Of a DNA stretch of 64,000 nucleotides, positions 33,703-54,772 are shown piece after piece; the first letter of the stretch is position 1, and each line of letters starts with the position of its first letter. Source of the DNA: Phycisphaerae bacterium. Its GTDB lineage: Bacteria > Planctomycetota > Phycisphaerae > Phycisphaerales > SM1A02. The DNA lies in assembly GCA_018701395.1 (NCBI GenBank), contig JABIWU010000051.1:895-64894 (forward strand), in the 5' to 3' direction. A program made the translations under genes and the position numbers. The notes below the pieces were generated by a model. The model saw only the letters and a program-made list of their open reading frames with translations. It was not told the DNA's origin and did not search any database.

Positions 33703-35345
33703 CCCGCGAAGCCTACAACCCCCTTTCAAGCAAATTTCACGATTGGGTAGTGACCGTCGATCACAAAAAACTTGGCGTGATGTACATCGTCACTGGCATT
33801 TTGTACCTCATCGTTGCAGGCAGCGAAGCTCTTATGATGCGCTGGCAACTGGCTATTCCAAACAACGACATTCTGTCACCAGATACATTTAATGCCTTTT
33901 TTACAATGCACGGAACAACGATGATTTTCCTCGTTGGCATGCCAATTTTACTCGGGGCAGCAAACTATTTTATCCCTCTGATGATTGGCGCACGAGACAT
34001 GGCGTTTCCAAGGTTAAATGCGTTTGGTTTCTGGCTCTTTTTCTTTGGCGCTCTTTTACTGTACTTCAGTTTCCTTGGAGGACAAGGGCTCTCTGGCGAA
34101 GAGGGTGCTCCAAATGTAGGTTGGTTTGCGTACGCACCATTAACCTCAACAACTTTTTCGCCAGGGTCTGCAACTGACTATTGGGTAATCTCTTTGTTTG
34201 TTGCTGGCCTTGGTTCCATAATGACAGCAATCAATTTGGTTACAACTATTCTCACGATGCGTTGCGATGGCATGACGCTCATGAAGATGCCACTATTCGC
34301 TTGGATGATGCTCGTTGACGCTGCATTAATTCTCATCGTGCTTCCTCCACTTGCGGTAATCCAAATTATGTTGTTATTAGATAGGCAATTTGGAGCGCAC
34401 TTTTTTGACGCACAAGCTGGCGCTGACCCTTTAATTTGGCAACACTTATTCTGGTTTTTCGGGCACCCAGAAGTGTACATATTAATTATTCCTGGCTTTG
34501 CATATATCTCTGAAGTCATACCCGTTTTCTCACGAAAAGTTCTCTTTGGCTATCCACTTATGGTTGCCGCCACTGTCTCAATTGGTTTTATCTCTCTGGG
34601 CGTTTGGGCGCATCACATGTTTGCCGTCGGTCTATCCCCCGCTGTTCTCGCATACTTTTCTGGCGCAACCTTTTTAGTTGGCGTTCCAACTGGCATGAAA
34701 ATTTTTAATTGGATTGCAACCATGTGGGGTGGGCACATTCGATTTGCAACGCCGATGCTTTTTGCAACTGGTTTTGTTTCGATGTTCGTCCTTGGAGGTC
34801 TAACTGGAATCATGCTTGCAGTCGTCCCAATGGATTGGCAACTGTCAGATACGTACTTTGTTGTTGGGCATTTCCACTGGGTACTCTTTGGGGGCTTGCT
34901 GTTTGCAATTTTCTCTGGGTTCTTTTATTGGTTCCCAAAAGTTACTGGCAGACTGCTAAATGAAACGCTTGGCAAATGGCAGTTTTGGTTTTTGTTTGTT
35001 GGCTTCTTAGTAACTTTCGGCCCAATGCATATGGCTGGATTTGAAGGAATGCCAAGAAGAATCTATACCTTTATGCCTGGACGTGGTCTTGAATTATGGA
35101 ACATGCTTTCAAGCATCGGCGCTGCGATTCAAGTAGTTGGCTTTATTCTTTTTGTTATCAATGTGTTTTGGAGTTTACGCAAAGGCAAAATTGCTGGCGA
35201 TGATCCTTGGGATGCTTGGACACTTGAATGGTCCACTACCTCTCCTCCGCCGCCGTGGAATTTTGCTGAAACACCTCAAATTGCAAGCAGAAGACCGCTC
35301 TGGGATTTAAAACACCCAGATGATCCAGATTGGAAATACGAATGA
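33699..35345 (+). CDS. ctaD: Cytochrome c oxidase subunit I
   Basis: 548 aa, 12 TM, with WFFGHPEVYILIIPGF, HHMF and VGHFHWV motifs. The start overlaps the ctaC stop (ATGA). Confidence 0.95.
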   Translation: MTREAYNPLSSKFHDWVVTVDHKKLGVMYIVTGILYLIVAGSEALMMRWQLAIPNNDILSPDTFNAFFTMHGTTMIFLVGMPILLGAANYFIPLMIGARDMAFPRLNAFGFWLFFFGALLLYFSFLGGQGLSGEEGAPNVGWFAYAPLTSTTFSPGSATDYWVISLFVAGLGSIMTAINLVTTILTMRCDGMTLMKMPLFAWMMLVDAALILIVLPPLAVIQIMLLLDRQFGAHFFDAQAGADPLIWQHLFWFFGHPEVYILIIPGFAYISEVIPVFSRKVLFGYPLMVAATVSIGFISLGVWAHHMFAVGLSPAVLAYFSGATFLVGVPTGMKIFNWIATMWGGHIRFATPMLFATGFVSMFVLGGLTGIMLAVVPMDWQLSDTYFVVGHFHWVLFGGLLFAIFSGFFYWFPKVTGRLLNETLGKWQFWFLFVGFLVTFGPMHMAGFEGMPRRIYTFMPGRGLELWNMLSSIGAAIQVVGFILFVINVFWSLRKGKIAGDDPWDAWTLEWSTTSPPPPWNFAETPQIASRRPLWDLKHPDDPDWKYE

Positions 35346-35929
35346 ATACATCTACTTCCAATACATCATTAAATATGCTTCCTCCAGGACATCTTGGAAT
35401 GATTTCCGTCATCGTCACTGAAGTTTTCTTCTTCGCTTCGCTAATTGTTGTTTACCTTGCATACCTTGGCAAGAGCATAAGCGGCCCTATGCCAAGTGAC
35501 ACACTTGAACTTGGTTTAGTCAGCTTCAACACAATCGCTTTACTTGCAAGTTCAGCAACCATTGTCCTTGCACTCAAAGCGTTGCGAACTGGTAACAACG
35601 TTCGTTTTCTAACTTGGTTACTTTGCACAATTGCTTTAGGCGCTTGGTTTTTGATCGGAACTGGAATTGAGTGGAAGGGACTTATAGTCGACGACCACTT
35701 ACGGTTGCAGACGAACCTATTCGGCACAACGTTTTACACGCTTGTTGGGTTCCATGCCTTCCATGTGACGTTTGGCGTTTTTGCACTGTTCGTAATCTGG
35801 TGTTTAGGGTTAAAAGGTTGCATTAAACAAAAGCATCATCAAAATATTGAATATGTATCGTGGTATTGGCACTTTGTCGACACTGTTTGGATAGCAGTTT
35901 TCCTTGTTGTGTACGTGATTGGAAGATAA
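35342..35929 (+). CDS. ctaE: Cytochrome c oxidase subunit III
   Basis: Multi-TM with FYTLVGFHAFHVTFGV and WYWHFVDTVW. The ATG at 35342 overlaps the ctaD stop (ATGA). Confidence 0.85.
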   Translation: MNTSTSNTSLNMLPPGHLGMISVIVTEVFFFASLIVVYLAYLGKSISGPMPSDTLELGLVSFNTIALLASSATIVLALKALRTGNNVRFLTWLLCTIALGAWFLIGTGIEWKGLIVDDHLRLQTNLFGTTFYTLVGFHAFHVTFGVFALFVIWCLGLKGCIKQKHHQNIEYVSWYWHFVDTVWIAVFLVVYVIGR

Positions 35930-36721
35930 ATGACAACAACTAAAACTACAATTAAAGTTCCAAAACCAACTGCGTGGCCTCTCGTTGCAGCATTTGGTCT
36001 CACGCTAACATTTGCAGGTTTTTTAACTTCATACCTAGTTGGAATTATTGGAGGCATTCTCAGTGTAATAGGTTTTATTGGGTGGTTCAAAGACCGTTTC
36101 CCGAACAACCTAGAAATAACTGTTGAAGTTGAGGCGCACCACATCCCCGCTCCAGTTCACTCTACAAAAAGCACACACGAAGAACACCCACATCACCGTG
36201 CAATATTGCCACTTAAAATCCATCGTACTCAGTCAGGACTGATCGGTGGAATCGCAGGTGGCATCGCGATGCTTATTGTTTCAGTGATTGGCAGTTTCAT
36301 CATGCATGGTTCACCTTGGTATCCTTTCAATGTTATGTCTGCGTCAGTCATGCACTCTATAACTGAGCAAAACTTAACCAATTTCAATGCAATTGCATTT
36401 GTTGTTGCCCTTGGAATTCACGCAACACTTTCCATTGGCATTGGCTTAGTGTATGGCGTTGTGCTACCACTCCTACCTAAACACCCTATCATTCTTGGCG
36501 CGCTTATCATCCCCTTCATCTGGAGTTTCTTACTATACGCAACCATGAACACCCTCAATCCTGTCCTGAATGAAACCGTCAACTGGAGTTGGTTCCTCGT
36601 TACGCAATTTGTATTTGGATTTGTTGCAGGAATTGTCGTTTCAAAAAGCGAAAAAATACAAACACTACAATTCAAAGCATTCGCAGAACGCGCAGGCATT
36701 GAGACAGGCAAAAATGATTAA
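35930..36721 (+). CDS. Operon-embedded multi-pass membrane protein of unknown function with a His-rich loop
   Basis: 263 aa with about 6 hydrophobic helices. The loop HHIPAPVHSTKSTHEEHPHHR lies at 36137-36199. The gene starts directly after the ctaE stop (TAAATG). Confidence 0.65.
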   Translation: MTTTKTTIKVPKPTAWPLVAAFGLTLTFAGFLTSYLVGIIGGILSVIGFIGWFKDRFPNNLEITVEVEAHHIPAPVHSTKSTHEEHPHHRAILPLKIHRTQSGLIGGIAGGIAMLIVSVIGSFIMHGSPWYPFNVMSASVMHSITEQNLTNFNAIAFVVALGIHATLSIGIGLVYGVVLPLLPKHPIILGALIIPFIWSFLLYATMNTLNPVLNETVNWSWFLVTQFVFGFVAGIVVSKSEKIQTLQFKAFAERAGIETGKND

Positions 36722-37370
36722 AACAATTCTACTTTCAGTATGTATTTTTCTTTTACTAAGTTGCGGAAAACCCTCTGTTGATGATCGTCCAATACGTCCA
36801 ATCGAAGTCCTTAACTTCGACACACTTTTTGCACAACGCTGTTCGGGTTGCCACGGGAATGAAGGTGCTGGAAGTGCATCAATTGCACTGCACGATTCGG
36901 CGTTTATGCACATCGCAGGGAAGTCAACTATTCGAGACCTAATTGTGAACGGTCGTAAAAATACCTTAATGCCCTCTTTCCAAAGTAATACTGGTAATCC
37001 TTTATCAGATGCACAAATAGACGCGCTTGTCATTGGGATGTCCGAAAACTGGGGAGGAGAGATTCCACCTTGGGCTGAAGGAAGACGATATGAAATTCAA
37101 AAAGGCGATGCCGGAAGAGGCCGAGGAGCATTTGCCGATTTATGTGCAAGTTGCCACGGCCCTGATGGCACCGGTGCAGTTGCCGGCTCTGTAGTCAATG
37201 CCTCCTACTTACGACTAGTGAGTGAACAATATTTACGAAGCGTCATTCTTTTCGGAAGACCAGAACTTGGCATGCCAAATTTTGCCTGCAAAACAGATGA
37301 CAAAACAATAGACGACATCGTTGCATGGCTTTTAACGCATAAAGAAAATTGGAGTAATGCCAATGACTAG
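36714..37370 (+). CDS. Dihaem c-type cytochrome (lipoprotein-like signal)
   Basis: MIKTILLSVCIFLLLSCGK signal, two CxxCH motifs (CSGCH, CASCH) and distal Met motifs (LMPSF, GMPNF). The ATG at 36714 overlaps the upstream stop by 8 nt. Confidence 0.8.
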   Translation: MIKTILLSVCIFLLLSCGKPSVDDRPIRPIEVLNFDTLFAQRCSGCHGNEGAGSASIALHDSAFMHIAGKSTIRDLIVNGRKNTLMPSFQSNTGNPLSDAQIDALVIGMSENWGGEIPPWAEGRRYEIQKGDAGRGRGAFADLCASCHGPDGTGAVAGSVVNASYLRLVSEQYLRSVILFGRPELGMPNFACKTDDKTIDDIVAWLLTHKENWSNAND

Positions 37371-37848
37371 ACGCACCTTATTAAATAGACTTGCACTTGG
37401 AATAAATGCACTTGCGGCTCTACTTGTTGGAGTGCCTCTCGTTGGTTTTGTATTTGCTCCTGCAGTTGACAAAGCAAAGAATAAATGGATCTCCATTGGC
37501 AAACTTGAAGAATTCACTGCAGGACAAACCAAACTTGCAACGTATATAAATCCTTATCTAGTTCCGTGGGATAACGAAGTTGCGAAAGTTCCATGTTGGG
37601 TTCGACGAATTGACGAAACCACATTTCAAGTGTTCGCAATTAATTGCGCACATCTTGGTTGCCCAGTAAAGTGGTTTGCAGAATCACAACTTTTCATGTG
37701 TCCTTGCCATGGTGGTGTGTATTACGCAGATGGTTCAAGAGCATCTGGGCCTCCACCTCGAGGGCTTTTTGAATACCAATATCGTTTAGAAAACGGACAT
37801 CTAGAAGTTCGTGGTGGCCGCCTTCCAACAATTCAGGAGAGCGTCTAA
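37357..37848 (+). CDS. Rieske [2Fe-2S] subunit of a cytochrome bc/b6c-type complex
   Basis: Tat-like N-terminus MPMTRRTLLNRLALG and the cluster boxes CAHLGCPV and CPCHGGVY. Confidence 0.9.
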   Translation: MPMTRRTLLNRLALGINALAALLVGVPLVGFVFAPAVDKAKNKWISIGKLEEFTAGQTKLATYINPYLVPWDNEVAKVPCWVRRIDETTFQVFAINCAHLGCPVKWFAESQLFMCPCHGGVYYADGSRASGPPPRGLFEYQYRLENGHLEVRGGRLPTIQESV

Positions 37849-38949
37849 GTGTCAAACCCATTCAAAACAATTGCCACGTGGGTCAACGAGCGAATGCAAT
37901 TGCAATCGTCGATCGGTCCAATCATGTCGCATCGAGTTCCGCTTCGCGCTCGATGGTTTTACGTTTTTGGATCCGCAACACTCACTTGCTTCTTGATGCA
38001 AATTCTAACCGGCATTCTGCTTTCAACCGTTTATGTTCCCAGCGCAGGGGAAGCGTACCAATCTCTTGAATACTTAAATTATGTACAACCCTTAGGCTGG
38101 TACCTTCGAGCGCTGCATGCGTTCTTTGGAAATGCCATGGTGTTTATGCTTCTTTGCCATCTTGTACAAGTCGTTATTTTCGCATCGTATAAATACCCAA
38201 GGGAATTAACGTGGGTATTTGGCGTAGTTTTGTTTTTGTGTGTACTTGCAATGGCATTCTCTGGGCAAATTCTTCGTTGGGACCAAGATGCTTACTGGGG
38301 ACTAGGAATCGGCGCTTCTATGGCTGGAAGGATTCCGATTCTTGGGCCATACGTGGTGCACTTAATGTTAGGCGGTCCGATTATTGGCGGCGAAACTCTT
38401 TCGCGCTTCTTCGCACTCCACGTTTTCGTTTTGCCACTAACCATTGCAGGAGTTATTTTTATTCATGTAATGCTTGTTCTAAAAAATGGCATTTCTGATC
38501 CACCAAGATCAGGCGTTGTTGTTAATCCAAAAACCGAACGAGAGGATTACAAAAAGAGAATTTCTGGTGATGAAGGAACCACTTTTTTCCCAACGCCAAT
38601 TGCACGAGATGCTATTTTCAGTGGCGGACTTGTCATTGTAGTTGCCTTACTTGCCGCAATGCTCGGACCAACTGGACCAAACGGTATTCCAGACCCCACC
38701 ATTATTGACACTTCACCAAAACCAGACATTTGGTTCATGTTCCTCTTTTCTTCTCTTGCTCTCCTGCCCCCAGCAATTGAAACGTTTCTTATTCTTACCG
38801 CTCCTGCCGTGTTAATTCTCGCGCTGTTTTCAGTTCCATTCCTCAGCAACAGCGGTCAACGGCACATTAGTAAACGCCCAGTAACTGCACTTCTTCTTAT
38901 ATTTATTTTCACCGTGTATTTCGTATTAACTTGGCTTGGTTACCAATAA
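37849..38949 (+). CDS. Cytochrome b (fused b6 plus subunit IV-like)
   Basis: GTG start immediately after the Rieske stop. Bis-His helix pairs RALHAFFGNAMVFMLLCHL and FFALHVFVLPLTIAGVIFIHV. 366 aa, multi-TM. Confidence 0.9.
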   Translation: MSNPFKTIATWVNERMQLQSSIGPIMSHRVPLRARWFYVFGSATLTCFLMQILTGILLSTVYVPSAGEAYQSLEYLNYVQPLGWYLRALHAFFGNAMVFMLLCHLVQVVIFASYKYPRELTWVFGVVLFLCVLAMAFSGQILRWDQDAYWGLGIGASMAGRIPILGPYVVHLMLGGPIIGGETLSRFFALHVFVLPLTIAGVIFIHVMLVLKNGISDPPRSGVVVNPKTEREDYKKRISGDEGTTFFPTPIARDAIFSGGLVIVVALLAAMLGPTGPNGIPDPTIIDTSPKPDIWFMFLFSSLALLPPAIETFLILTAPAVLILALFSVPFLSNSGQRHISKRPVTALLLIFIFTVYFVLTWLGYQ

Positions 38950-38964
38950 CCTTGGTCACCAAAA

Positions 38965-39309
38965 ATGCAAGCATGGAGCAGTGACGAAACGCCCATCCAT
39001 TTCATAGAAGGAAGAACACCATTGGAATTAGCTGGTGCCGCTGCCTTTCAATATAAACAGTGCAGAAACTGTCATCAACTTGGTGGCATAGGCGGTGAAC
39101 GTGGACCTGAACTTGATTCGATTGCAACTCGAAAAACAACAAACGAACTTATCCGTCAGGCAATACAAGGCGGAGGAAATATGCCAACATATGGACATAA
39201 TCTTTCTCCGGAAGAGCTAATCTCAATCGTTGCCTTTTTATCCACCCTGCATCCTGAAAATGAAAGCCCAGCTCAAACTGCTGATGTTTCATTGAATCCA
39301 ACAAACTAA
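38965..39309 (+). CDS. Monohaem class I c-type cytochrome
   Basis: CRNCHQLGG haem-binding motif and GGGNMPTYG distal Met region. 114 aa. Confidence 0.8.
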   Translation: MQAWSSDETPIHFIEGRTPLELAGAAAFQYKQCRNCHQLGGIGGERGPELDSIATRKTTNELIRQAIQGGGNMPTYGHNLSPEELISIVAFLSTLHPENESPAQTADVSLNPTN

Positions 39310-39318
39310 ACTACGTCT

Positions 39319-41508
39319 ATGTCTGATTCATTCCAAGCAGCATTGCGTTTATGGACACTTGATTGGTGGACATTACTCGGGGCTGCACTAACATGTGCCT
39401 TGTACTATCGCGGCTGGAGTGGACTACACCGAAGACAACCGACAAAATACACCAAGGCAAGATTAGTCTCATTCATCGCAGGTATTGCGATTCTCGTAAT
39501 TGCAATTGTTTCACCTCTTGATACGCTTGCCGGTGTCTTGTTACAAGTACACATGGCACAACATGTGTTGCTAATGATGGTCATCCCACCACTGCTTTGG
39601 TTGAGTTGGCCAGCTCTTCCTCTTCTCTGTGGCTTGCCATTTACAATTCAAAAATATTGGATCGGTCCATTTTTAATTTCCAAGGGAATGCATTCGTTCG
39701 GTCGATTTCTTGTGCATCCTATTGTTGCATTGACATTATTTGTTTGCACCACTTGGATATGGCATTACCCTCGTGCTTACCAACTGGCACTTGTTAGTGA
39801 CACGTGGCATTCCATCGAGCATGCTTGTTTCCTATGCACAGCATTGTTATTTTGGTTTCCAATTATTGCGCCACAACCTTCAAAACCGGCTTGGCCACAG
39901 TGGGCAATGATTCCATACTTACTGGTAGCGGACATTCAAAACACTATTTTTTCAGCTTTCTTTAGTTTTGCAAGCGAGCCAATTTATTCTTTCTACCCAG
40001 ACCTTGGCTTGTTCGGAACTACGCTACTTCGAGATCAAGCCGCTGCAGGCGGACTTATGTGGGTTGCTAGTTCTGCTATTTTCTTAATACCTGTAGCAAT
40101 CATTTTGAAGAACATGCTTACGAATAAGGAAATGCTTGAGAAACCAACACCTTCAATTCAAAGTACACGTGTACCTCAAACCAAAGCATCTCGTTCGCGT
40201 TGGTTATATTCGATAAAAACAAGAAGAGCCGCACAACTTTTCATGTTTACACTAGCAGTTTTTACAATTGCAGATGGTCTGCTAGGACCAGAACTAGCGC
40301 CAATAAATTTGGCTGGAATATTACCCTGGATTTGGTGGAGAGGTCTTGTAATAATCGCCATACTTGTTGCTGGAAACTTTTTTTGTTATGCCTGTCCGTT
40401 TATGTTTGTTCGCGATCTAGCAAAACTGTTGCCTATTCCTAAAACTCGTTGGCCTCAAACCTTTCGCTCAAAGTGGCTAGCCGTTGCACTGTTTGTTGTT
40501 TGGCTTATGGTGTACGAAGTAATTTCTCCATGGTCATCACCTGCTTTTACAGCGTGGATCATTATCGGTTATTTTATTACTGCATTTTGCGTTGACGCTT
40601 TTTTTACTGGCGCAGCATTTTGCAAATGGGTTTGCCCTATTGGCCAATTTCATTTTGTTCTTTCTATATTTTCTCCATTTGAAATCAAAGCAATTTCAAA
40701 ATCAACTTGCGATACTTGTACAACTCAAGAATGTATTCGCGGGAATGGTTCGCCTATTGCTAGTAGAGGTTGCGAATTAGAACTTTTCGTTCCAACAAAA
40801 CAAGGAAACTTAGATTGCACGTTTTGCCTTGATTGTGTCCGAGCTTGCCCTCATGACAATGTTGCTCTTACTACTTCTTTCCCAGGCATCGACTTAGTCA
40901 ATGGAACATTCCGAGGCTCCATTGGTTCACTTCAACGTTCTGACTACACCGCACTCATGCTAGTTGTCGTCTTTGGAGCATTTGCAAATGCTGCCGGCAT
41001 GATTACGCCAGTTACTAACGCAATTAATAATACATCGCAATGGGTCGGCGCACCTTCAACGGCGCTCATAACTGCTATTTTCATTCTTTCTGCTTCTTTT
41101 ATTATTCCGAGTTTACTTTGCCTTTTGTGTAAGCGATTTGCTCGCACAACTTTTCAGGTCGCGTGGTCACTTGTTCCACTTGGCGTTGCAATGTGGGCAG
41201 CGCATTTGCTTTTTCATTTTTTCTCTTCGTACAAAACAATATTACCAGTTACAAAACGTGCCTTGTACGATATCGGGCTTACGAATATACCCGAAACAAT
41301 GTGGGAAATTACTTCGCCCCCAACTTGGCTTCTGCAAGGCGAACTCTTTTTGATAGTTATTGGTTTCCTTGCTTCTATTGCAATTTGTATTAGGCTTACG
41401 AACACGTTCCGCGAAAGAGCGCCGTGGTGTTTGCTTTCTATATTGTTATTTGTTTCAGGTGCTTGGATTCTTCTTCAGCCTATGCAAATGCGAGGAATGA
41501 TTGGATGA
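39319..41508 (+). CDS. Fusion protein: caa3-type oxidase assembly factor CtaG (COG3336-like) plus FixG/CcoG/NapH-like polyferredoxin membrane domain
   Basis: The N-terminal ~270 aa has VHMAQHVLLMMVIPPLLWLSWP, HPIVALTLF..WHYP and WHSIEHACFLCTALLFWFPII (Caa3_CtaG pattern). The C-terminal ~430 aa has CYACP (40384-40398), CKWVCP (40621-40638), CDTCTTQEC and CTFCLDCVRACP (40816-40851). Confidence 0.75.
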   Translation: MSDSFQAALRLWTLDWWTLLGAALTCALYYRGWSGLHRRQPTKYTKARLVSFIAGIAILVIAIVSPLDTLAGVLLQVHMAQHVLLMMVIPPLLWLSWPALPLLCGLPFTIQKYWIGPFLISKGMHSFGRFLVHPIVALTLFVCTTWIWHYPRAYQLALVSDTWHSIEHACFLCTALLFWFPIIAPQPSKPAWPQWAMIPYLLVADIQNTIFSAFFSFASEPIYSFYPDLGLFGTTLLRDQAAAGGLMWVASSAIFLIPVAIILKNMLTNKEMLEKPTPSIQSTRVPQTKASRSRWLYSIKTRRAAQLFMFTLAVFTIADGLLGPELAPINLAGILPWIWWRGLVIIAILVAGNFFCYACPFMFVRDLAKLLPIPKTRWPQTFRSKWLAVALFVVWLMVYEVISPWSSPAFTAWIIIGYFITAFCVDAFFTGAAFCKWVCPIGQFHFVLSIFSPFEIKAISKSTCDTCTTQECIRGNGSPIASRGCELELFVPTKQGNLDCTFCLDCVRACPHDNVALTTSFPGIDLVNGTFRGSIGSLQRSDYTALMLVVVFGAFANAAGMITPVTNAINNTSQWVGAPSTALITAIFILSASFIIPSLLCLLCKRFARTTFQVAWSLVPLGVAMWAAHLLFHFFSSYKTILPVTKRALYDIGLTNIPETMWEITSPPTWLLQGELFLIVIGFLASIAICIRLTNTFRERAPWCLLSILLFVSGAWILLQPMQMRGMIG

Positions 41509-41936
41509 TTCGATTCCTACTTTTTTGCATACTCTTTGTTTCGCCTTGCTTCGCAGACAATGGACATTTGATTAGTACTTTCAAAACAGATACGTACAAC
41601 GTCGCTATCTTTGCTGAACCATGGCCACTACGAGTTGGTGACATTCAATTTCGCGCAATCGTGACCGACCATGCTGGGAATTTACATATTGACCCCGATA
41701 TTGTGCCATTTGATGGGCAAATACTCACAATCAACATCGCTGAGCCAAGCACGTACACGCTTGAATATTTCCTTGCGGGACTACCTCAAAAGCCCATTCA
41801 ACTTGCAATAGCGCCGAAGGCGTCAATCTTTTCTTTGTATTGGGAAGTGTGGGCATCCTTGATTATTGGGCTAATATTCATCATTTTAAGAGAAATACTC
41901 GCCAAAAACCAAGCCCGTAGGTATCCTAATAGGTAA
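41505..41936 (+). CDS. FixH/YtkA-like small secreted/membrane-anchored protein
   Basis: Signal MIRFLLFCILFVSPCFA, an Ig-like pattern EPWPLRVGDIQFRAIVTDHAGNLHIDPDI and a C-terminal TM WASLIIGLIFIIL. The ATG overlaps the upstream stop (ATGA). The family call is tentative. Confidence 0.45.
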   Translation: MIRFLLFCILFVSPCFADNGHLISTFKTDTYNVAIFAEPWPLRVGDIQFRAIVTDHAGNLHIDPDIVPFDGQILTINIAEPSTYTLEYFLAGLPQKPIQLAIAPKASIFSLYWEVWASLIIGLIFIILREILAKNQARRYPNR

Positions 41937-41948
41937 GGAACACCATTT

Positions 41949-42221
41949 ATGGCAAAAGCAATAGCAGACCCAGAAGAAATCAGACGATTTGCACACGACT
42001 TAAAGCGTTTCAACGATGACTTAACGCATCAGTTGCAACTCATGCGCTCTCGCATGTCATCCCTGTCCCAAAGTTGGCGAGACCAAGAGCAACGAAAGTT
42101 TGAAGAAGAATTCGACTTTACCGTCAAGGCAATGGATCGCTTCGCAAAATCATCCGCCGAACAGATTCCGTTCCTTCTTCGTAAGGCCCAGCGCATCGAA
42201 GAATATTTACAACAACGGTAA
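41949..42221 (+). CDS. WXG100-like helical-hairpin protein (W-R-D variant)
   Basis: 90 aa with no signal peptide. Two predicted helices flank a central SQSWRDQEQRKFEEEF (W at 42075-42077), matching the W-x-G-x5-F layout of ESAT-6/WXG100 proteins with G replaced by D. AAGGA lies upstream of the ATG. Confidence 0.6.
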   Translation: MAKAIADPEEIRRFAHDLKRFNDDLTHQLQLMRSRMSSLSQSWRDQEQRKFEEEFDFTVKAMDRFAKSSAEQIPFLLRKAQRIEEYLQQR

Positions 42222-42224
42222 CAC

Positions 42225-42833
42225 ATGTCACAAGCCGCAAATGTCCGTTCTCTTGAATCGCTAGTTGAGTTTCGTACAGCGCTTGTTAAATATATCGATA
42301 AAGCGAAGCGTTCAATTTCAACAGCAGATTCTGAAGTTTCTCGAACACAAATATGGCTTCAATCTACACAGCCGCTACATTGGAAACATGAAATCAGAAG
42401 AAGCGAGGAAAAACTCGCCCAAGCAAAAAGTGAATTATTTCGTGCAACTATTTCTCAACCCGACAATCCAAGAGGTCCAACTGATCAAATTCGGCTTGTA
42501 AAAAAACGGCAAGATGAAATAAAATTTGCTGAAGAAAAACTTGAACGAACCAAACGATGTTCAAGACATCTTGAACATGAACTCAATGAATATCGAGGGG
42601 CTATGACTCCATTAAGCAGTTCGCTTGACGGTGACATGAACAAAGCCGTAAGCATTTTAGAACGCGCAATAAGTTCACTCGAAGCATACATCGCGACTAC
42701 TTCGACCTCTGCAGACGAACTACTCGGCGACGCACAACAAGTCAAATCCATCGCACGAAAAGGTAAAGACCAAACAAAGGAGGTCGACGATGAGCATGCC
42801 GACAGCGACAGCGCAACTGACAAAAGCAACTAA
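42225..42833 (+). CDS. Coiled-coil protein of unknown function with acidic C-terminal tail
   Basis: 202 aa, heptad-rich (EEKLAQAKSELFRA, EIKFAEEKLERTK), ending in KEVDDEHADSDSATDKSN. It starts 3 nt after the preceding stop. Confidence 0.6.
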   Translation: MSQAANVRSLESLVEFRTALVKYIDKAKRSISTADSEVSRTQIWLQSTQPLHWKHEIRRSEEKLAQAKSELFRATISQPDNPRGPTDQIRLVKKRQDEIKFAEEKLERTKRCSRHLEHELNEYRGAMTPLSSSLDGDMNKAVSILERAISSLEAYIATTSTSADELLGDAQQVKSIARKGKDQTKEVDDEHADSDSATDKSN

Positions 42834-43002
42834 AGCCATGCTGTATCAATGGCAAGTGGCTAACGAGCATTGGAATGACCCCGTGAGCAAACGGCTTGAA
42901 GAGAAACACATCGAGCCCCTTCTCCTAGCTGTTCGTAGTGCTATCGGAGCGATGGATTCAATGGGCGAAACTATCGCCAAAGCGCAGAATGAGTGTTCCT
43001 GA
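42790..43002 (+). CDS. Second small WXG100-like protein (W-N-D variant), paralogous to 41949-42221
   Basis: 70 aa. NEHWNDPVSKRLEEKH (W at 42871-42873) aligns with SQSWRDQEQRKFEEEF of the first protein. A perfect AAGGAGG (42777-42783) sits 6 nt before the ATG at 42790, even though this start overlaps the upstream gene by 44 nt. Confidence 0.6.
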   Translation: MSMPTATAQLTKATKAMLYQWQVANEHWNDPVSKRLEEKHIEPLLLAVRSAIGAMDSMGETIAKAQNECS

Positions 43003-43029
43003 GTGCTACAATGCTAATGCATAACTTCT

Positions 43030-46000
43030 ATGACTAAATCATCACTTCAACATCAAAAAAAGCAGATTGCCTTTGTTCGCTCATTAATTCGAGAAACAAC
43101 TTCTAGCGAGCTAGAACTACAAAATCGAATCAAAATTGAACGTGCCTCTGCTATTGAATTGCAAAAACAAAACCTTGAAGCATGTGTAGAGAAATTTAAG
43201 CAAAAGCGTGAAACTGCTGGGCAACGCAAAGAGGGAACGATAACCGAGGTTCAAGATCGACGCGAACTTGAACCTGAATTACTCAAGCAAAAAAACGATC
43301 AACGAATCGTTGAAATTAATTCACAAGCTGAAGATTTAACTGAAGATACAGAAACTAAATTAGGCGAAGCAATCTGGCTTGCAGAATCTGTTTTCGAAGG
43401 TGCTATTTCAGTTCCAAGAGAGCGCGCTCAAGAAGAACAAAATGCATTAGAAGATTGCAAAGAAGCTCTCCACTTACTCATTGAGGAAGCACCGAAGACG
43501 CTATCTAAATTACGTCAAAAGCAAGACACTCATCTAACCGAATGTACAAAAACCGCAGATGACACCATGGCAAATTATGTCAAAGGCGCAACTGAAGCCC
43601 TAGGCGCTATTCAAAATGATCCTAAAGCAAAATGGTGTTCTGGTTTTAGGCCAGTATTAGTTGTTGGAATTGCCGCAGCAGCTGGAGTTGGCGTCGGAGG
43701 AGCGTATACAAATTGGGCTCTTACGTTGCCATTTTTTGCATTCGCAATTGGAGCAATATTAATCTCAGTACTAGCAATTATTTTCACTTTTGCTTCTGGT
43801 CGTAATTCCGTCAAGAAAAAGTATGCGCAGTTCTCATCATGCATTCAATCAGCAAAACTCTCCTACGAGACTTCTCGTAATTCAATCGACGTAAAGCGAC
43901 GCGCAGAAGAAAAAGGGATCACTACTACTCGTGATATTGAAATCAAAAAAGCGGAAGACAAATACAAACCAAGACTAGACAACGTTGAAAGGCTTCTCAA
44001 AAAAGACATTGATAAAGAGAAAGTGAAATTCAAAAGTGTCGGAGCCAAACTAGCTACTAAAATTGAAACCGACTTAGCCGAAGCATCCTCAACCTTTGAA
44101 GCAAGTATTGTCAAATGCAACAGTGACGAACAAGCCGAGATTGATCAAATAAAAACCACTTTCACAGAGACGATGCAGTCCATTGATAATGAAGAACGTG
44201 ACACAATGGAAGCGTTGTCAAACCGTTGGAACTCCAACTTTGCATCGTTTCACGCAGACACAGACAGCCAAATACAGAGTGCGATTTCTAATCACCCCAC
44301 TTGGGATTCTAGTTGGGACGCTTGGGAACCCCCAGCGCAATCTATCATGGATGTTCCCGTCGGCGCATTCGAAGTAGACCTTGCCAACATTGCTGGCAAT
44401 TTACCATGCAGTGAATCCTTCCAATTACAAGAGGCGACTGTGATTTCGCTTCCGCTGAATGCTACGCTTCCAAATCACACATCCGTACTTGTATCTTCAA
44501 CAGGAAAGCGTCGAAGCGACTCAATTGCTTTTTTACAAAGCACAGTGTTGCGAATGCTCACTTCTATTCCACCTGGAAAAGTGAAATTCACATTGATTGA
44601 CCCCGTTGGTCTTGGCCAAAGTTTTGCGAGCGTGCTTCATCTATCGGATTACGAAGAGTCTCAGTTACTCGATCGCGCTTGGACTGAACCAAGACATATC
44701 GAAACGCAACTCGCACGACTTACTGAGCACATGGAAACTGTTATTCAAAAGTATCTACGAAATGAATTTGAATCGATTGATGCGTACAACGAACAAGCGG
44801 GAGAAATTGCAGAGCCCTATCGCTTTTTAGTAATCGCTGATTTACCGAACAACTTTTCTGAAACAGCGGCAAAGCGCTTAACCAGCATTATTACCAGCGG
44901 TGCTCGTTGTGGCGTGCATGTCATTATACATCGAGATATTTCACTACCTCTTCCTGCTGGTATAGACGAGGACACATTACGAAGAATTTCCGTACGCATT
45001 GTTGAAGATGATGCCAGATTCTGCATTGACGAAGAAGAACTTCGAGACTTGCCACTTACAATTGAATCTCCGCCAGCTGAAGATATTGCTTCAGCAATCG
45101 TTAAGCAAGTTGGCGAAACTGCTGACAGCACGCATCGAGTCGAGGTTCCGTTCAGTGTCATTTCTCCAGCAGCCGATAAAATTTGGTCGCGGTCAACAAA
45201 AGATAAGGTTGAAATTCCACTTGGAAAATCTGGCGCTACAAGACTTCAAAACTTAACGCTTGGCAGAGGAACTGCACAGCACGCACTTATTGCCGGAAAA
45301 ACTGGCTCAGGCAAATCAACACTCTTACATGTTTTAATTACGAACCTTGCGCTTTGGTATAGCCCAGACGAAATAGAATTTTATCTAGTCGACTTTAAAA
45401 AAGGCGTCGAATTCAAAACCTACGCAACACATAAATTGCCGCACGCACGAGTCGTCGCCGTCGAAAGCGACCGTGAATTCGGCATAAGTGTTTTACAAAG
45501 AATTGATGCTGAATTAAAACGTCGCGGTGAATTATTTCGAGAGTTAGGCGTGCAAGATATTGCTGGGTTTAGAGACAAATCCACAGAACGAATGCCACGA
45601 ATTCTTCTTATCATTGATGAGTTTCAAGAACTTTTCGTTGACGATGACAGAGTTGCACAAGAAGCGAGCTTATTACTTGACCGCTTAGTTCGGCAAGGCC
45701 GAGCGTTTGGAATCCACGCAATCATGGGTTCTCAAACTCTAGACGGTGCCTATACCTTGAGTCGTTCAACTATGGGGCAGATGGCTGTACGCGTTGCGTT
45801 GCAGTGTTCAGAACAAGACAGTTACATTATTCTAAATGAAGACAATGCAGCCGCTCGTCTTCTTTCAAGGCCCGGCGAAGCCATTTACAACGATGCCGCA
45901 GGTAATATTGAAGGCAATAGTCCATTCCAAGTTGTTTGGTTGAATGACAAAGAGCGTGAAATGTTCATCAAAGATTTAATCACGCGTGACAAAGGCAACG

Positions 46001-46827
46001 CGCGCGATATGGTTGTGTACGAAGGAAATCAACCAGTCCATCTTGCAGAAAACCCGGCGTACAAAGCAGCGAGCAATACTGAAAAACCACTCGCATCCAA
46101 AGCGTGGCTTGGTGGGGCGATGGCGATTAAAGAAGACACGTCAGCCACGTTCCGTACTGCCTCTGCAAGCAATTTGCTGATTGTCGGTCAACAAGATGAA
46201 ACAACAACTTGCATGTTATCGAGTGTATTGCAATCGCTTGATAAGCAGTTCCCAAAAGGGGATGCTACGTTCTACTTGCTTGATGGCACCCCGCAAGATC
46301 AACCACATGCTTCAATTCTTCCAGATACTGTTCATTCGATGTCGATTCCCCCAACGCTCGTTGGCGTGCGAGATATTGAAGGAGCAATGGCAACACTCTA
46401 CGCTGAGTTACAAAAAAGACTTTCAGATGGAGTAAGTGATTCACCAACTGTTTTCCTTTGCATCAATGCACTGCATCGCTTCAGAGACATGCGCCGCAAC
46501 GAAGATGATTACGGATTTTCAACGGGCGATGAAGAAAAGCAAAAAACACCTGCTCAGGTGCTTGCTGAATTACTCAAGGAAGGCCCGACGCTCGACATGC
46601 ATGTCATCGTTTCAACCGATACTCTCTCCAACCTGAACAGAGCGTTCGATAGACAGTCGTTGCGAGAGTTTGATATGCGCGTCCTCTTGCAGATGGGTGC
46701 GAACGATTCCACAAATCTTATCGATATGCCAGATGCTTCGAAACTTGGCATGCACCGTGCTCTTCTCTATAGTGAAGAAACTGGTACAATAGAACCCTTC
46801 AGGCCGTATGCTTATCCCGAAAGTTAA
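43030..46827 (+). CDS. Membrane-anchored FtsK/SpoIIIE-family ATPase with three P-loop domains (EssC/EccC-like)
   Basis: 1265 aa. It has a ~200-aa N-terminal coiled coil, a TM hairpin (about 43654-43800) and a second coiled-coil region. Three FtsK-like domains follow. D-a is degenerate (STGKRRSDS; RFLVIADLP). D-b is canonical, with Walker A GKTGSGKST (45295-45321) and Walker B LLIIDEFQEL (45601-45630). D-c is degenerate (LLIVGQQDETTT; VFLCINALHRF). Confidence 0.85.
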   Translation: MTKSSLQHQKKQIAFVRSLIRETTSSELELQNRIKIERASAIELQKQNLEACVEKFKQKRETAGQRKEGTITEVQDRRELEPELLKQKNDQRIVEINSQAEDLTEDTETKLGEAIWLAESVFEGAISVPRERAQEEQNALEDCKEALHLLIEEAPKTLSKLRQKQDTHLTECTKTADDTMANYVKGATEALGAIQNDPKAKWCSGFRPVLVVGIAAAAGVGVGGAYTNWALTLPFFAFAIGAILISVLAIIFTFASGRNSVKKKYAQFSSCIQSAKLSYETSRNSIDVKRRAEEKGITTTRDIEIKKAEDKYKPRLDNVERLLKKDIDKEKVKFKSVGAKLATKIETDLAEASSTFEASIVKCNSDEQAEIDQIKTTFTETMQSIDNEERDTMEALSNRWNSNFASFHADTDSQIQSAISNHPTWDSSWDAWEPPAQSIMDVPVGAFEVDLANIAGNLPCSESFQLQEATVISLPLNATLPNHTSVLVSSTGKRRSDSIAFLQSTVLRMLTSIPPGKVKFTLIDPVGLGQSFASVLHLSDYEESQLLDRAWTEPRHIETQLARLTEHMETVIQKYLRNEFESIDAYNEQAGEIAEPYRFLVIADLPNNFSETAAKRLTSIITSGARCGVHVIIHRDISLPLPAGIDEDTLRRISVRIVEDDARFCIDEEELRDLPLTIESPPAEDIASAIVKQVGETADSTHRVEVPFSVISPAADKIWSRSTKDKVEIPLGKSGATRLQNLTLGRGTAQHALIAGKTGSGKSTLLHVLITNLALWYSPDEIEFYLVDFKKGVEFKTYATHKLPHARVVAVESDREFGISVLQRIDAELKRRGELFRELGVQDIAGFRDKSTERMPRILLIIDEFQELFVDDDRVAQEASLLLDRLVRQGRAFGIHAIMGSQTLDGAYTLSRSTMGQMAVRVALQCSEQDSYIILNEDNAAARLLSRPGEAIYNDAAGNIEGNSPFQVVWLNDKEREMFIKDLITRDKGNARDMVVYEGNQPVHLAENPAYKAASNTEKPLASKAWLGGAMAIKEDTSATFRTASASNLLIVGQQDETTTCMLSSVLQSLDKQFPKGDATFYLLDGTPQDQPHASILPDTVHSMSIPPTLVGVRDIEGAMATLYAELQKRLSDGVSDSPTVFLCINALHRFRDMRRNEDDYGFSTGDEEKQKTPAQVLAELLKEGPTLDMHVIVSTDTLSNLNRAFDRQSLREFDMRVLLQMGANDSTNLIDMPDASKLGMHRALLYSEETGTIEPFRPYAYPES

Positions 46828-46957
46828 CATTAGTCGACCGACGAAAAAAGCAAAAAAATACACCTGAAAAACTAAGGGCCATTAGCTCAGTTGGCTAGAG
46901 CGCTTCGTTTACACCGAAGAAGTCACAGGTTCGAGTCCTGTATGGCCCATTAGTCGA
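46828..46957. repeat. 10-bp exact direct repeat CATTAGTCGA flanking tRNA-Val
   Basis: Copy 1 is at 46828-46837, directly after the ATPase stop codon. Copy 2 is at 46948-46957, starting with the last two nt of the tRNA. The tRNA 5' end also contains CCATTAG. Confidence 0.7.
46876..46949 (+). tRNA. tRNA-Val (anticodon UAC)
   Basis: Hand-folded cloverleaf, 74 nt: acceptor GGGCCAT/ATGGCCC, D stem GCTC/GAGC, anticodon stem CTTCG/CGAAG with loop TTTACAC, 5-nt variable loop, T stem ACAGG/CCTGT with loop TTCGAGT, discriminator A. CCA is not encoded. Confidence 0.9.
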
Positions 46958-47230
46958 GTTGCTAGAAGTAACCAACTTCCTGCAACTACTTGCAACAAAA
47001 GGAACTACATCTTTCGGGTTGTGTGACGTTTCCGCTCGTTTACCCCTATTTCCGCTACCTACTGCAACGCTCGCATAGTCATCTTCAGTCACTTGCAAGT
47101 AATGTTCGTTTGCAACCTTTGGCGAGTTTCCCATCCAGCATGCAACAACATGTACAGGCAATTCACGAGTAAGTTCAGTCTGTCGAGTTGAACGTAGGTT
47201 CTGCTTGAACAGTTGACGGCATTGTGTTTT
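46950..47230 (-). pseudogene. Tyrosine recombinase (phage-type integrase) C-terminal remnant
   Basis: The minus-strand translation LFKQNLRSTRQTELTRELPVHVVACWMGNSPKVANEHYLQVTEDDY (about 47063-47221) matches the C-terminal catalytic region (R...H...Y) of planctomycete-type integrases. The ~300 N-terminal residues are missing, and the frame runs on into the tRNA antisense. Confidence 0.7.
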
Positions 47231-47273
47231 TCTGTTCAATCTGATGCATAATGCACAGTGAAGGTGCATCGAA

Positions 47274-47522
47274 GTGGCAGATAAAAAATACGAACAACTG
47301 AAAAGTAAAACTATCCTAACAATTCTATGTTCACTACTTTTCTCCTGCGTTAATCTTGGTGAGAAGTATGTCACGATACGATTGCCTCATCCAGAAAAAA
47401 TAAAAGTAGTCAAGATTTCAGATGTAGAGTGGAGTGAATCAGAAAATGGATATCGCACAGACGGTTGGTGCATTATGAGTCTAGAGGACTATGAAAAGGT
47501 TGATGCATATATGAATAAATAA
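47274..47522 (+). CDS. Small hypothetical lipoprotein
   Basis: 82 aa from a GTG start, with lipobox-like LLFSC after a hydrophobic stretch. A hairpin plus T-run lies 10 nt after the stop. No homologue was recognised. Confidence 0.45.
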   Translation: MADKKYEQLKSKTILTILCSLLFSCVNLGEKYVTIRLPHPEKIKVVKISDVEWSESENGYRTDGWCIMSLEDYEKVDAYMNK

Positions 47523-52916: not shown

Positions 52917-52931
52917 TATAATTAACCTATA
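52917..52931 (+). promoter_or_regulatory. Possible -10 box (TATAAT) giving a leaderless or near-leaderless transcript for the FlgI-like gene
   Basis: TATAAT at 52917-52922 ends 8 nt before the ATG at 52931. No Shine-Dalgarno is visible in between, and no good -35 was found. Confidence 0.25.
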
Positions 52932-54772
52932 TGCGTACAGTCATTTTTATATTGTTGATTACTGTTAGTACCAGTTGCAGTTCAGTCGAACGAGTTGGTG
53001 ATCAAAAACGTGCCAAGAGATCAAACTCTCGTTACGTTGGTGAAGTTCCAAACATGCTCAAAGGAACGGTCAAACACCATGTCGCATTGATGGGATATGA
53101 CTCCACCTATAGCGATACCTACGAACCATCTGTAAGTTCAGGATATGGCTTGGTCGTTGGTTTGAATGGAACTGGTTCAAGCGAAATCCCGCCTCAAGTC
53201 CGTGCACATATGATTGCTGACTTAGCGCGAAGAGGCGTTGGACAATCCACTCAGGGTTTTGGGAGTATGACACCCGATGAATTAATAAATTCGGATGACA
53301 CCTCAGTCGTTATTGTTGAAGCGATTATCCCAAAAGCGGCAACTGGTCGAAAACCACCACGGTCGAATATGAAACCCGACCACCCTTCTCTTCGAGGTAC
53401 AACATTTGATGTACATGTTTTTGCAGAACCGAGCAGTTCTACTTCTAGTTTAGAAGGAGGCTTGCTCCTTCCGACATACTTACGGCTTGGGCAACTCACT
53501 ACAGGCAAGGGGCAAGCTAGAGAAGTTGCTGTTGCATCTGGACCACTATTTATTAACCCTTTTGCAGACCCAGAATCAGTTGGTAAAGATTATGTCAGTC
53601 GCACATCAGGAAGAATTCTTGATGGTGGCGAAGTAATGGTAAACATGCCAATGCGTCTCATCCTTCTTGACCCAAGCCATGCTCGAGCGTCGATGATTCA
53701 AACAGCCATTAACCGAGTTTTCCCAGAGCAACAAGGGCAAGATGGACCAACTGCTCGAGGCATTAATGACGAACAAATTGAAATCCGAGTACCCCCGTCT
53801 TGGAAATACGATATCAACTCATTCATGGAAATCATGACGCACATTACGCTTCGAGTGCAAAACCATGAAACTGTTGCGGTACAAGTTAAACGAATGATTG
53901 AACAAGACCCAAGCCCAAGAAATGCTGATGCCGCAATTTGGCGTTGGAGATCACTAGGCGATCGTGCACTTCCAATCATCAGACCACTCTACGAATACCC
54001 TGATGAAATTCCTCGACTTGCTGCCCTTCGCGCAGGAGGTGGGCTCAAGGATCCGATGTGTGTACCGCATCTAATCGATATGGCCAACGATGATATCGGT
54101 TTGGGCAATCGACTTGATGCGCTCGATTTATTACAAGAAATGCCTGCAGATTTCCGCATCGAAATTGGACTTCGCCCACTTCTCAACTCGCCCGATTTAG
54201 AAATTCGATTACATGCTACCGAAACTCTCGTAGCACGCAATGACCCTGCAATCGACAAATACACCATTGGAAATAAATTTGATTTAATTGTTGTTGATTC
54301 AGACCACAATACAATTTACGTTACCCAAACTGGCGTGCCAAGAATAATTTTGACTGGCAACATCAATATAACACGTCCTTTGACAATGCAAACATGGGGC
54401 TCTGACTTGCTTATCAAAGAATCGAAAACGAACGAACAAGCACTTGAAGTTAAATACAGAAACAACACCGGACACTCGTATCGATACGATAATATTTCTC
54501 CTAGTTTACCTACCTTCACAATGTTCCTTTCTCACGTTACTACACCAGAAGCACCCGCCCCGGGTTTAGACTTGACGTACAGCCGGACAATTGGTGCTAT
54601 TCATTCTCTTTGGCGCCAGCAATACCTCAATGCTGACTTTAAAGTAGAACAAGACCGCCTTCTAGCTGCAATTCAACGGTTGACATCTGAAACAACCTAC
54701 ACCCCAAGACCTGAGTTTGGCACTGAAGAAACCGAAGAAGGCGAAGAGTTAGATTCTCGTTTCCTAAAATAA
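52931..54772 (+). CDS. FlgI (flagellar P-ring)-family protein, enlarged (613 aa), lipoprotein-type signal, with HEAT-like insertion
   Basis: The signal is LLITVSTSCSS. SSGYGLVVGLNGTGS (53141-53179) is the FlgI hallmark, and SLEGGLLLPTYL resembles FlgI SLRGGTLL. An internal HEAT-like segment lies at about 53935-54250. No other flagellar genes are in the window. Confidence 0.65.
   Translation: MRTVIFILLITVSTSCSSVERVGDQKRAKRSNSRYVGEVPNMLKGTVKHHVALMGYDSTYSDTYEPSVSSGYGLVVGLNGTGSSEIPPQVRAHMIADLARRGVGQSTQGFGSMTPDELINSDDTSVVIVEAIIPKAATGRKPPRSNMKPDHPSLRGTTFDVHVFAEPSSSTSSLEGGLLLPTYLRLGQLTTGKGQAREVAVASGPLFINPFADPESVGKDYVSRTSGRILDGGEVMVNMPMRLILLDPSHARASMIQTAINRVFPEQQGQDGPTARGINDEQIEIRVPPSWKYDINSFMEIMTHITLRVQNHETVAVQVKRMIEQDPSPRNADAAIWRWRSLGDRALPIIRPLYEYPDEIPRLAALRAGGGLKDPMCVPHLIDMANDDIGLGNRLDALDLLQEMPADFRIEIGLRPLLNSPDLEIRLHATETLVARNDPAIDKYTIGNKFDLIVVDSDHNTIYVTQTGVPRIILTGNINITRPLTMQTWGSDLLIKESKTNEQALEVKYRNNTGHSYRYDNISPSLPTFTMFLSHVTTPEAPAPGLDLTYSRTIGAIHSLWRQQYLNADFKVEQDRLLAAIQRLTSETTYTPRPEFGTEETEEGEELDSRFLK

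Follow-up and report, generated by a model that had tools for sequence, protein, structure and literature searches.

Introduction

Type VII secretion systems (T7SSs) have been studied almost solely in Actinomycetota and Bacillota, where the motor works together with several other membrane proteins and where attention has centred on toxins and virulence. In one of these motors, EccC, the ATPase ring sits directly beneath the ESX pore, to which EccC contributes 12 membrane helices; its stalk is short, the first of its ATPase-like domains (the DUF) has no canonical motifs, and its domains D2 and D3 still bind nucleotide. Here we describe an EccC/EssC-like ATPase gene that closes a four-gene cassette in a 64,000-nucleotide stretch of DNA from a Phycisphaerae bacterium (positions 895–64,894 of contig JABIWU010000051.1; this whole stretch is “the window” below, and its own numbering is used throughout). 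On balance we favour the view that this ATPase is the motor of a minimal, toxin-free T7SS-like cassette of PVC (Planctomycetota, Verrucomicrobiota, Chlamydiota) bacteria and acts on the small helical proteins encoded beside it.

The family has been noted computationally before. In a single sentence, Zhang et al. 2012 (Biol Direct 7:18, Table 1 footnote 6; PMC3482391) describe a “solo WXG” gene accompanied by an ATPase of three domains of which the middle one alone is active, name planctomycetes and verrucomicrobia among the carriers, and call these “mobile versions of T7SS”. The window gene shares the domain pattern, the adjacent lone WXG gene and the phyla of this class (“Solo WXG + three-domain YueA-like ATPase”), and we take it to be a member. 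The dead-live-dead pattern of the domains is thus already known from that footnote, whose one sentence is without the N-terminal module, the other two small genes and the distribution described below. Our search of the literature brought up nothing further on T7SS-like systems of planctomycetes, diderms or Gram-negative bacteria, a 2024 survey of T7SS variants is restricted to Gram-positive bacteria, and we found no published description of a long, paired, fixed-length stalk. What is new here is the near-invariant length of two long helices, their shared hydrophobic period of 3.65 residues and the antiparallel register of their conserved blocks. Relative to the studied systems, the family would be a variant T7SS motor.

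Three tandem FtsK-like domains with one predicted active site

The ATPase open reading frame (ORF; 43,030–46,827, + strand) has just four open codons 5′ of its ATG. Residues 723–902 match Pfam FtsK_SpoIIIE (PF01580) with E 1e-38 and 133.5 bits against a gathering cut-off of 24, and this match and the Walker A and B motifs within it place the protein in the FtsK/SpoIIIE (HerA-FtsK) superfamily. An earlier note on this DNA, made from the sequence alone, had proposed degenerate, canonical and degenerate FtsK-like domains in that order (D0, D1 and D2 here). That order is correct and is a property of the whole family, as judged from an alignment of 75 homologues (41–76% identity) that was used both for conservation and for AlphaFold2 (AF2) modelling. 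Walker A of D1, GKTGSGKST, occupies residues 756–764 (nucleotides 45,295–45,321), exactly where it had been placed; Walker B, LLIIDEFQEL, is present at residues 859–868, but its true position is 45,604–45,633, three nucleotides away from that first given. In all 75 homologues G756, T758, G759, S760, G761, K762 and S763 of Walker A (GKTGSGKS) and D863, E864, F865, Q866 and E867 of Walker B (DEFQE) are invariant.

The strings that the note had read as degenerate counterparts of these motifs were also found, STGKRRSDS (residues 490–498) and RFLVIADLP (598–606) in D0, and GQQDETTT (1053–1060) and VFLCINALHRF (1141–1151) in D2. Across the same alignment no family member has the Walker A lysine in D0, where R495 and D604 (D or N) are kept, and the P-loop of D2 is replaced by G1053-Q1054-[QR]-[DE]-[ED], whose G1053-Q1054 pair is invariant. 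The Walker B position of D2 reads ..[NHY]-G-L-[QH]-R1150-F-R1152-x-L-R1155 with an invariant R1150/R1152/R1155 cluster, and D2 carries a conserved C-terminal motif, E-x-F-R-P-Y. Of the three domains, D1 alone is predicted to be able to bind and hydrolyse ATP.

The AF2 model of residues 430–1265 (pLDDT, predicted local distance difference test, of 83) shows the identical strand-helix order three times over, and the loop from the first strand to the “P-loop helix”, measured with DSSP on the model, is about 5 residues long in D1, 1 in D0 and 2 in D2. The top Foldseek match in the PDB is the cytoplasmic part of EccC from T. curvata, with its three ATPase domains (4nh0, E 2e-33, 961 columns), followed by two-domain structures of EccC and EssC and then by the FtsK motor and TcpA; three RecA/FtsK-like domains are therefore present, not fewer, and the flanking ones are not unrelated folds. 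Sequence matches in the PDB are EccC, EccC5 and YukB. The NCBIfam models EccCa, EccCb and EssC align over residues 464–958, 747–1250 and 718–1232, respectively, and, since EccCa (DUF plus D1) aligns in a single stretch, the analogy that had been drawn with the EccC “DUF plus D1” arrangement is apt. We identify D0 and D2 as FtsK-like because of their fold, the Pfam match on D0 (27 bits, over the FtsK_SpoIIIE cut-off, residues ~501–636 in the genome-wide scan) and profile comparisons within the family: hhalign on slices of the family alignment relates D0 to D2 and D1 to D2 (probability ~96%, E ~8e-9), and gave no direct link between D0 and D1.

Small proteins encoded with the ATPase

Three small genes precede the ATPase gene (Table 1), so that, as in T7SSs, a WXG100-family protein is co-encoded with the ATPase. 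The WXG100-like protein has W-R-D in place of W-x-G at its turn and a conserved C-terminal tail, ..riEeYLxQR (..IEEYLxQR). We compared 80 related loci by tblastn; a WXG100-like gene lies upstream of the ATPase in 64 of these, and many of the loci without all three small genes are cut by contig ends. Wherever all three small genes are present (58 loci), the order WXG, coiled-coil, 70-residue protein, ATPase is identical. Conservation beyond the cassette was found by tblastn of the related loci in the closest relatives only.

The 202-residue coiled-coil protein has no family match over cut-off in Pfam or NCBIfam; it is conserved over residues 1–160 and not in its acidic tail, and its gene always stands between the other two. 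The 70-residue protein, likewise without a family match in Pfam or NCBIfam, carries a conserved W..(6)..W-x-D motif and aligns with the WXG family in hhalign (probability 77.6%, E 1.9e-5); it probably forms another WXG100-like hairpin, a short one. Its gene begins 44 nucleotides inside the 202-residue gene, in another frame (42,790–42,833), and so covers the non-conserved acidic tail; the start of the 70-residue protein is conserved across related loci. The cassette genes are tightly spaced; in a promoter and terminator scan of 41,300–47,500, sites were no more numerous than in shuffled sequence.

A long N-terminal module with a membrane hairpin

The earlier note had placed a coiled coil, a transmembrane (TM) hairpin and a second coiled coil before the ATPase domains. 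The AF2 model of residues 1–467 (pLDDT 87) bears out this order: residues 5–160 form a single unbroken helix of 156 residues, residues 161–206 a low-confidence loop (161–179) and then two short helices, and residues 233–421 a second unbroken helix in which TM2 continues into the cytoplasm. This cytoplasmic part is about 165 residues long, however, and not 220 as first stated. The membrane segments, TM1 (207–226) and TM2 (233–256), have Kyte–Doolittle maxima of 1.8 and 2.7 and are joined by a six-residue uncharged outside loop with a conserved W229. Positive residues flank the hairpin on both sides (K199, K201 and R207 before it; R258 and K262–264 after it), so both termini of the protein should be cytoplasmic, and the hairpin is kept in all 76 ORFs from the loci and all 75 aligned homologues. 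A T7SS ATPase is expected to have a cytoplasmic head and, ahead of its ATPase domains, two membrane helices, as is predicted here. The linker that follows the second helix has conserved W425, W429, W432 and P434.

Segment lengths in this module were counted in 76 ORFs from other genomes, whose N-terminal regions are only ~17–20% identical. From residue 20 to 116 there are 96 residues in 61 of the 76 sequences, from 116 to 160 there are 44 (73/76), from 257 to 312 there are 55 (70/76), from 312 to 400 there are 88 (74/76) and from 400 to 425 there are 25 (66/76). Length variation is confined to the loop at 160–205, which ranges from 44 to 70 residues. The sole conserved blocks of the long helices are residues 113–129 of the N-helix (E113, A114, W116, A118, E119, V121, Y122, E123 and P129) and 301–316 of the post-membrane helix (R301, D302, A308, Y312, P314 and L316), and a conserved proline ends each. 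Both helices have a hydrophobic period of 3.65 residues, with a power of 82 in the N-helix (shuffle maximum 44) and 68 in the post-membrane helix (shuffle maximum 33) and little power at 3.5, which points to hendecad-like helices and not to the heptads of classical coiled coils.

The best antiparallel register of the two helices, i+j = 430, sets the two conserved blocks opposite each other and the N-terminus opposite residue ~421, the start of the ATPase part. The hydrophobic stripe is narrow (21–22% large hydrophobic residues, with E+K+R at ~35%), and a narrow stripe with so high a charge fits a paired rod better than a helix lying on a lipid surface. The structures that Foldseek finds for the N-terminal model are without exception long shafts of two antiparallel helices (Rad50, MukB arms, cytoplasmic domains of chemoreceptors, AhlB/SmhB), in matches that are weak and generic (best E 2e-3, ~400–460 columns). 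From these neighbours, the fixed lengths, the shared period, the register of the blocks and the narrow stripe, we infer that the N-helix (residues 5–160) and residues ~270–421 of the post-membrane helix pair antiparallel, so that the two “coiled coils” of the earlier note are real long helices but are best read as the two strands of a single antiparallel stalk. The modelled stalk would be a fixed-length rod of about 23 nm (~152 paired residues × 1.5 Å) that carries the membrane hairpin on one end, its tip; the ATPase head and the N-terminus would therefore lie together at the other end, far from the membrane. Covariation between the lengths of the N-helix and the stalk was uninformative as a test of pairing, both lengths being essentially constant. 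The two helices also align with each other in hhalign (probability 94.9%, E 4e-8); we do not claim a duplication, as two charged helices of equal period can score in this way.

A phmmer search with residues 1–440 against 1.84 billion representative proteins gave 71 matches, all of them collinear members or fragments of this ATPase family, so the N-terminal module is private to the family and not a generic coiled coil. In one relative (P0173; 1092 residues, cut at its C-terminal end) a Ser/Thr kinase (Pfam Pkinase, residues 99–351, E 3e-52) is fused N-terminally, giving the layout Cys/His-rich stretch, kinase, helix-hairpin-stalk module (449–858), D0. This fusion suggests regulation by phosphorylation in some lineages, and a kinase at the N-terminus fits an N-terminus that lies beside the ATPase head.

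Table 1. Features of the cassette and of the ATPase, with positions in the window.
Feature	Position	Strand	Basis or remark
WXG100-like protein, 90 residues, first cassette gene	41949..42221	+	Pfam WXG100 32.6 bits vs cut-off 27.3
Helical coiled-coil protein, 202 residues, second cassette gene	42225..42833	+	upstream of ATPase in 67/80 loci
Helical protein, 70 residues, third cassette gene	42790..43002	+	upstream of ATPase in 63/80 loci
ATPase gene, EccC/EssC-like, three FtsK/SpoIIIE domains, 1265 residues	43030..46827	+	fourth and last of cassette
N-terminal long helix, residues 5–160, putative descending stalk strand	43042..43509	+	AF2 single helix, pLDDT ~90–97
Variable loop and short helices, residues 161–206	43510..43647	+	AF2, length comparison
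Membrane hairpin, residues 207–256	43648..43797	+	Kyte–Doolittle, AF2, homologues
Post-membrane long helix, residues 257–421, putative ascending stalk strand	43798..44292	+	AF2, pLDDT 85–97
Trp/Pro-rich linker, residues 422–468, and first beta-strands into D0	44293..44433	+	alignment, AF2
D0, degenerate FtsK-like, DUF-like, residues 469–715	44434..45174	+	Pfam FtsK_SpoIIIE 27 bits; EccCa alignment; beta-alpha-beta pattern in AF2 model
D1, P-loop domain predicted to be catalytically competent, residues 716–1000	45175..46029	+	Pfam FtsK_SpoIIIE E 1e-38
D2, degenerate FtsK-like, residues 1001–1265	46030..46824	+	EccCb and EssC alignments, hhalign, Foldseek

Comparison with characterised proteins

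EccC (T. curvata 4nh0/4n1a; M. tuberculosis EccC5 7np7) is the best match in both fold and sequence, and it shares with the window protein two membrane helices, a helical stalk, tandem FtsK-like domains and linkage to WXG100 genes. It differs in having four domains (DUF, D1, D2 and D3), whereas the ATPase here has three, the last without a P-loop lysine, and in lacking the N-helix; the stalk here has ~165 residues and is paired with a helix of 156. EssC/YukB (G. thermodenitrificans EssC 4lya and 5fv0; B. subtilis YukB 9qks) likewise have a cytoplasmic N-terminal module, two membrane helices, tandem FtsK-like domains and a single co-encoded WXG100 protein (EsxA-like), but the N-terminus of EssC consists of two FHA domains where the window protein has one long helix; Pfam detects no FHA domain in it, in agreement with the earlier note, and nothing in EssC, EccC or FtsK matches its helix-hairpin-helix module. 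Neither the canonical EccC set (DUF+D1+D2+D3) nor that of EssC (FHA-FHA ... D1-D3) is therefore present. Unlike T7SSb systems, the cassette has no linked EssB or EsaB (the search did not extend to EssA and EsaA) and LXG toxins are absent, and the P0173 kinase loosely recalls the FHA and pseudokinase theme of T7SSb.

FtsK/SpoIIIE DNA translocases belong to the same P-loop superfamily, and D1 is a strong PF01580 match, but the single motor, alpha and gamma domains, 4TM anchor and disordered linker of FtsK have no counterparts here. Rad50/SMC arms, chemoreceptors and ClyA-family toxins (AhlB/SmhB) resemble the stalk as two-helix antiparallel rods of some 20 nm, and the AhlB type even has a hydrophobic helical hairpin at the rod tip; these shafts have no sequence relationship to the stalk, however, and none has an FtsK-type ATPase head.

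Proposed function and alternatives

We consider it rather probable that the ATPase is the motor of a minimal type VII-like cassette. It has several (three) tandem FtsK-like domains in a single chain, as T7SS ATPases do, its closest relatives in fold and sequence are EccC and EssC, ahead of FtsK, and a chromosome pump is unlikely in a genome that has its own canonical FtsK. By analogy with EccC and EssC, the protein would form a hexameric ring with D1 as its engine, and the DUF-like D0 would couple D1 to the stalk, as the EccC DUF domain lies beside its stalk. The dead D2 might have a regulatory part, docking the small helical hairpin proteins, much as EccC/EssC ATPase domains bind the C-terminal signal sequence of WXG100 proteins, and then switching D1 on; the contact could perhaps be made by the conserved tail at the C-terminus of the WXG protein. 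From there the small proteins might pass to or across the cytoplasmic membrane and, by way of the ring's 12 membrane helices, reach the periplasm.

Several observations weigh against this interpretation. Scores for the NCBIfam T7SS equivalog models are far under their cut-offs (EccCa 122 vs 509, EccCb 105 vs 347 and EssC 122 vs 778 bits). Profiles of D0 alone and D2 alone found nothing among PDB sequences at E ≤ 1 except an 11.8-bit EccC5 match for D2, so the flanking domains are very diverged. The register signal of the stalk is modest (conservation correlation r 0.43, where the best parallel control reaches 0.31), and the evidence for the antiparallel pairing is indirect. As for accessory membrane components, EccB and YukD/EccD-type proteins were not found in the genome (EccE, MycP, EssA and EsaA were not searched for), and the search for YukC/EssB gave sub-threshold, kinase-like matches (16–17 bits) elsewhere in the genome. 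The host is diderm, as a homologue of the FlgI P-ring protein attests, and the cassette has no linked outer-membrane component. Export by any member of the family is argued from analogy, and a rod of ~23 nm between ring and membrane would be hard to square with the EccC mechanism. Export is therefore the least secure step of the proposal, given the diderm host, the lack of accessory membrane proteins among those searched for and a ring some 23 nm away from the membrane.

Some of these features also speak for a membrane-tethered cytoplasmic machine, in which the ring stands ~23 nm inside the cell and assembles, remodels or disassembles complexes of the small proteins, for signalling, a membrane-associated scaffold or a stress response, while the hairpin is a mere anchor and nothing crosses. 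We think this less probable than a secretion motor, though the likeliest of the alternatives. The long fixed stalk would keep the ring away from the membrane; EccB and YukD/EccD were not found and no outer-membrane partner is linked; the genome has no toxin-type or additional WXG/LXG substrates, its one WXG100 match being the cassette's own; the cassette is retained in a streamlined 1.94-Mb genome amid housekeeping genes; and relative P0173 has its N-terminal Ser/Thr kinase. On the other hand, all 151 sequences examined retain the hairpin, whose outside loop carries a conserved Trp; a hexamer would bring 12 membrane helices, the number that EccC supplies to the ESX pore; and, to our knowledge, every characterised pairing of a WXG100 protein with a multi-domain FtsK-like ATPase is an export system. 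A different arrangement of the long helices, flat on the cytoplasmic face of the membrane like the 11-residue-repeat amphipathic helices of apolipoproteins and perilipins, would put the ATPase domains at the membrane as in EccC. The period of 3.65 residues (~11/3) is a hallmark of such lipid-surface helices, and residues 304–417 give a weak Pfam Apolipoprotein match (E 5e-4, far under cut-off); we nevertheless regard this arrangement as improbable, because the stripe is too narrow and the charge too high for the broad faces of lipid-binding helices, both lengths are fixed to the residue with the conserved blocks in antiparallel register, and the structures nearest to the AF2 model are antiparallel hairpins.

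Least probable of all, in our judgement, is a pump for DNA like FtsK, SpoIIIE or TraB, which would either segregate chromosomes or transfer DNA by conjugation or for a mobile element. In its favour are the strong Pfam FtsK_SpoIIIE match, the FtsK motor and the TcpA coupling protein among the fold matches, the patchy distribution (39 of 301 genomes, below) and the “mobile versions of T7SS” label that the footnote of PMC3482391 gives to the class. But EccC/EssC are nearer than FtsK in both sequence and fold, WXG100-like genes are constant neighbours, and in the family tree the sequences group by class and are not scattered. We reject a DNA translocase because the ATPase has none of FtsK_4TM, FtsK_alpha and FtsK_gamma and a canonical FtsK is encoded elsewhere in the genome, and a mobile element because there are no mobility genes nearby and the guanine-plus-cytosine (GC) content is even; the surroundings, with respiratory-chain and translation genes and no integrase, relaxase or transposase, thus differ from what the “mobile versions” label of that footnote would lead one to expect, as does the class-clustered tree.

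If a secretion motor is accepted, its stalks might themselves be the transport path: six two-helix hairpins would make a 12-helix tube of ~23 nm, a cytoplasmic counterpart of the TolC alpha-barrel, running from the ATPase ring to a pore of 12 membrane helices, and the conservation of stalk length to the residue would then reflect a tunnel or molecular ruler matched to stacked helical-hairpin cargo (the WXG-like, 70-residue and ~200-residue proteins). We hold this to be a long shot; if true, it would add an unprecedented design to the bacterial protein translocases and give diderm PVC bacteria a type VII-like inner-membrane route. In any event, the cassette is a pared-down system: it consists of three small helical proteins and a single membrane protein, has no toxins linked to it and is found in diderm bacteria. 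If it does export, it defines a minimal T7SS core and raises the question of where the cargo goes in a diderm cell; if it does not, WXG100/EccC pairs also serve an end other than secretion. The dead-live-dead order offers a natural experiment on how degenerate domains gate a live ATPase domain, a question that arises for EccC and EssC as well, and the predicted fixed stalk of ~23 nm is the unexpected part of the protein and a concrete structural prediction.

Distribution of the ATPase family

The architecture that the earlier note called unusual is real, but it is typical of a family of some size, in which a pattern of three domains with the middle one active was noted in 2012. It is far beyond chance, as the same full-length layout occurs in thousands of database proteins. 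Full-length homologues number thousands in metagenomes and are present in at least 593 species genomes, nearly all labelled Planctomycetota (Phycisphaerae and Planctomycetia), and a small Verrucomicrobiota clade is nested inside the planctomycete ATPases. Culturable carriers include a Singulisphaera sp. (L019) and Phycisphaera mikurensis (L033). Presence was surveyed in 301 evenly drawn genomes of the phylum, with the whole protein and a family-specific D0 profile as separate queries; both searches gave the same 39 genomes, and few genomes of the window's own order have the ATPase. Among high-quality genomes the ATPase is in 36 of 284, and it occurs in 30 of 217 genera. A phylum-wide core gene is thus rejected by two independent searches. 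Two of the sampled genomes (G266 and G070) have two ATPase copies each, so duplication within a genome is possible.

A FastTree tree of 76 sequences clusters by class, with 8–9 label changes where shuffled labels give ~22. Its branching does not match taxonomy cleanly, and the labels of metagenome-assembled genomes cannot be relied on. The closest relatives (L001–L003) are titled “uncultured Isosphaeraceae” (Planctomycetia) and stand with the window inside a Phycisphaerae-dominated clade, which reflects either wrong labels on metagenome-assembled genomes or transfer of the cassette.

Genome and neighbouring genes

The genome is 1.94 Mb at an estimated completeness of 97.7%, where other sampled genomes of the phylum have 3–7 Mb. 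Its canonical FtsK has the 4TM + alpha + motor + gamma layout (795 residues), and a second copy (alpha + motor + gamma) is interrupted by a contig end. Apart from the cassette's own gene, no WXG100 gene was found in the genome.

The neighbours of the cassette are housekeeping genes, GC is even across the region, and no integrase, relaxase or transposase was found among them. COX3, c-type cytochromes, a Rieske protein, cytochrome b and CtaG lie upstream, and a GDSL lipase and BipA downstream. The upstream genes form a respiratory row (35,330–41,508, + strand) that encodes, in order, a COX3-like protein, a 263-residue membrane protein, a dihaem c-type cytochrome, a Rieske protein, cytochrome b, a small c-type cytochrome and a 729-residue protein. 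Only the first 270 residues of the last match the caa3 assembly factor CtaG, and the other ~460 are Cys-rich (CPxC/CxxC) with many membrane segments; this fusion is retained in the two closest relatives (L001 and L002). Further along the window (52,931–54,772, + strand) is the gene for a 613-residue protein in which weak HEAT repeats come after a flagellar P-ring (FlgI) domain. The protein is almost twice as long as a usual FlgI and marks the outer membrane of the host.

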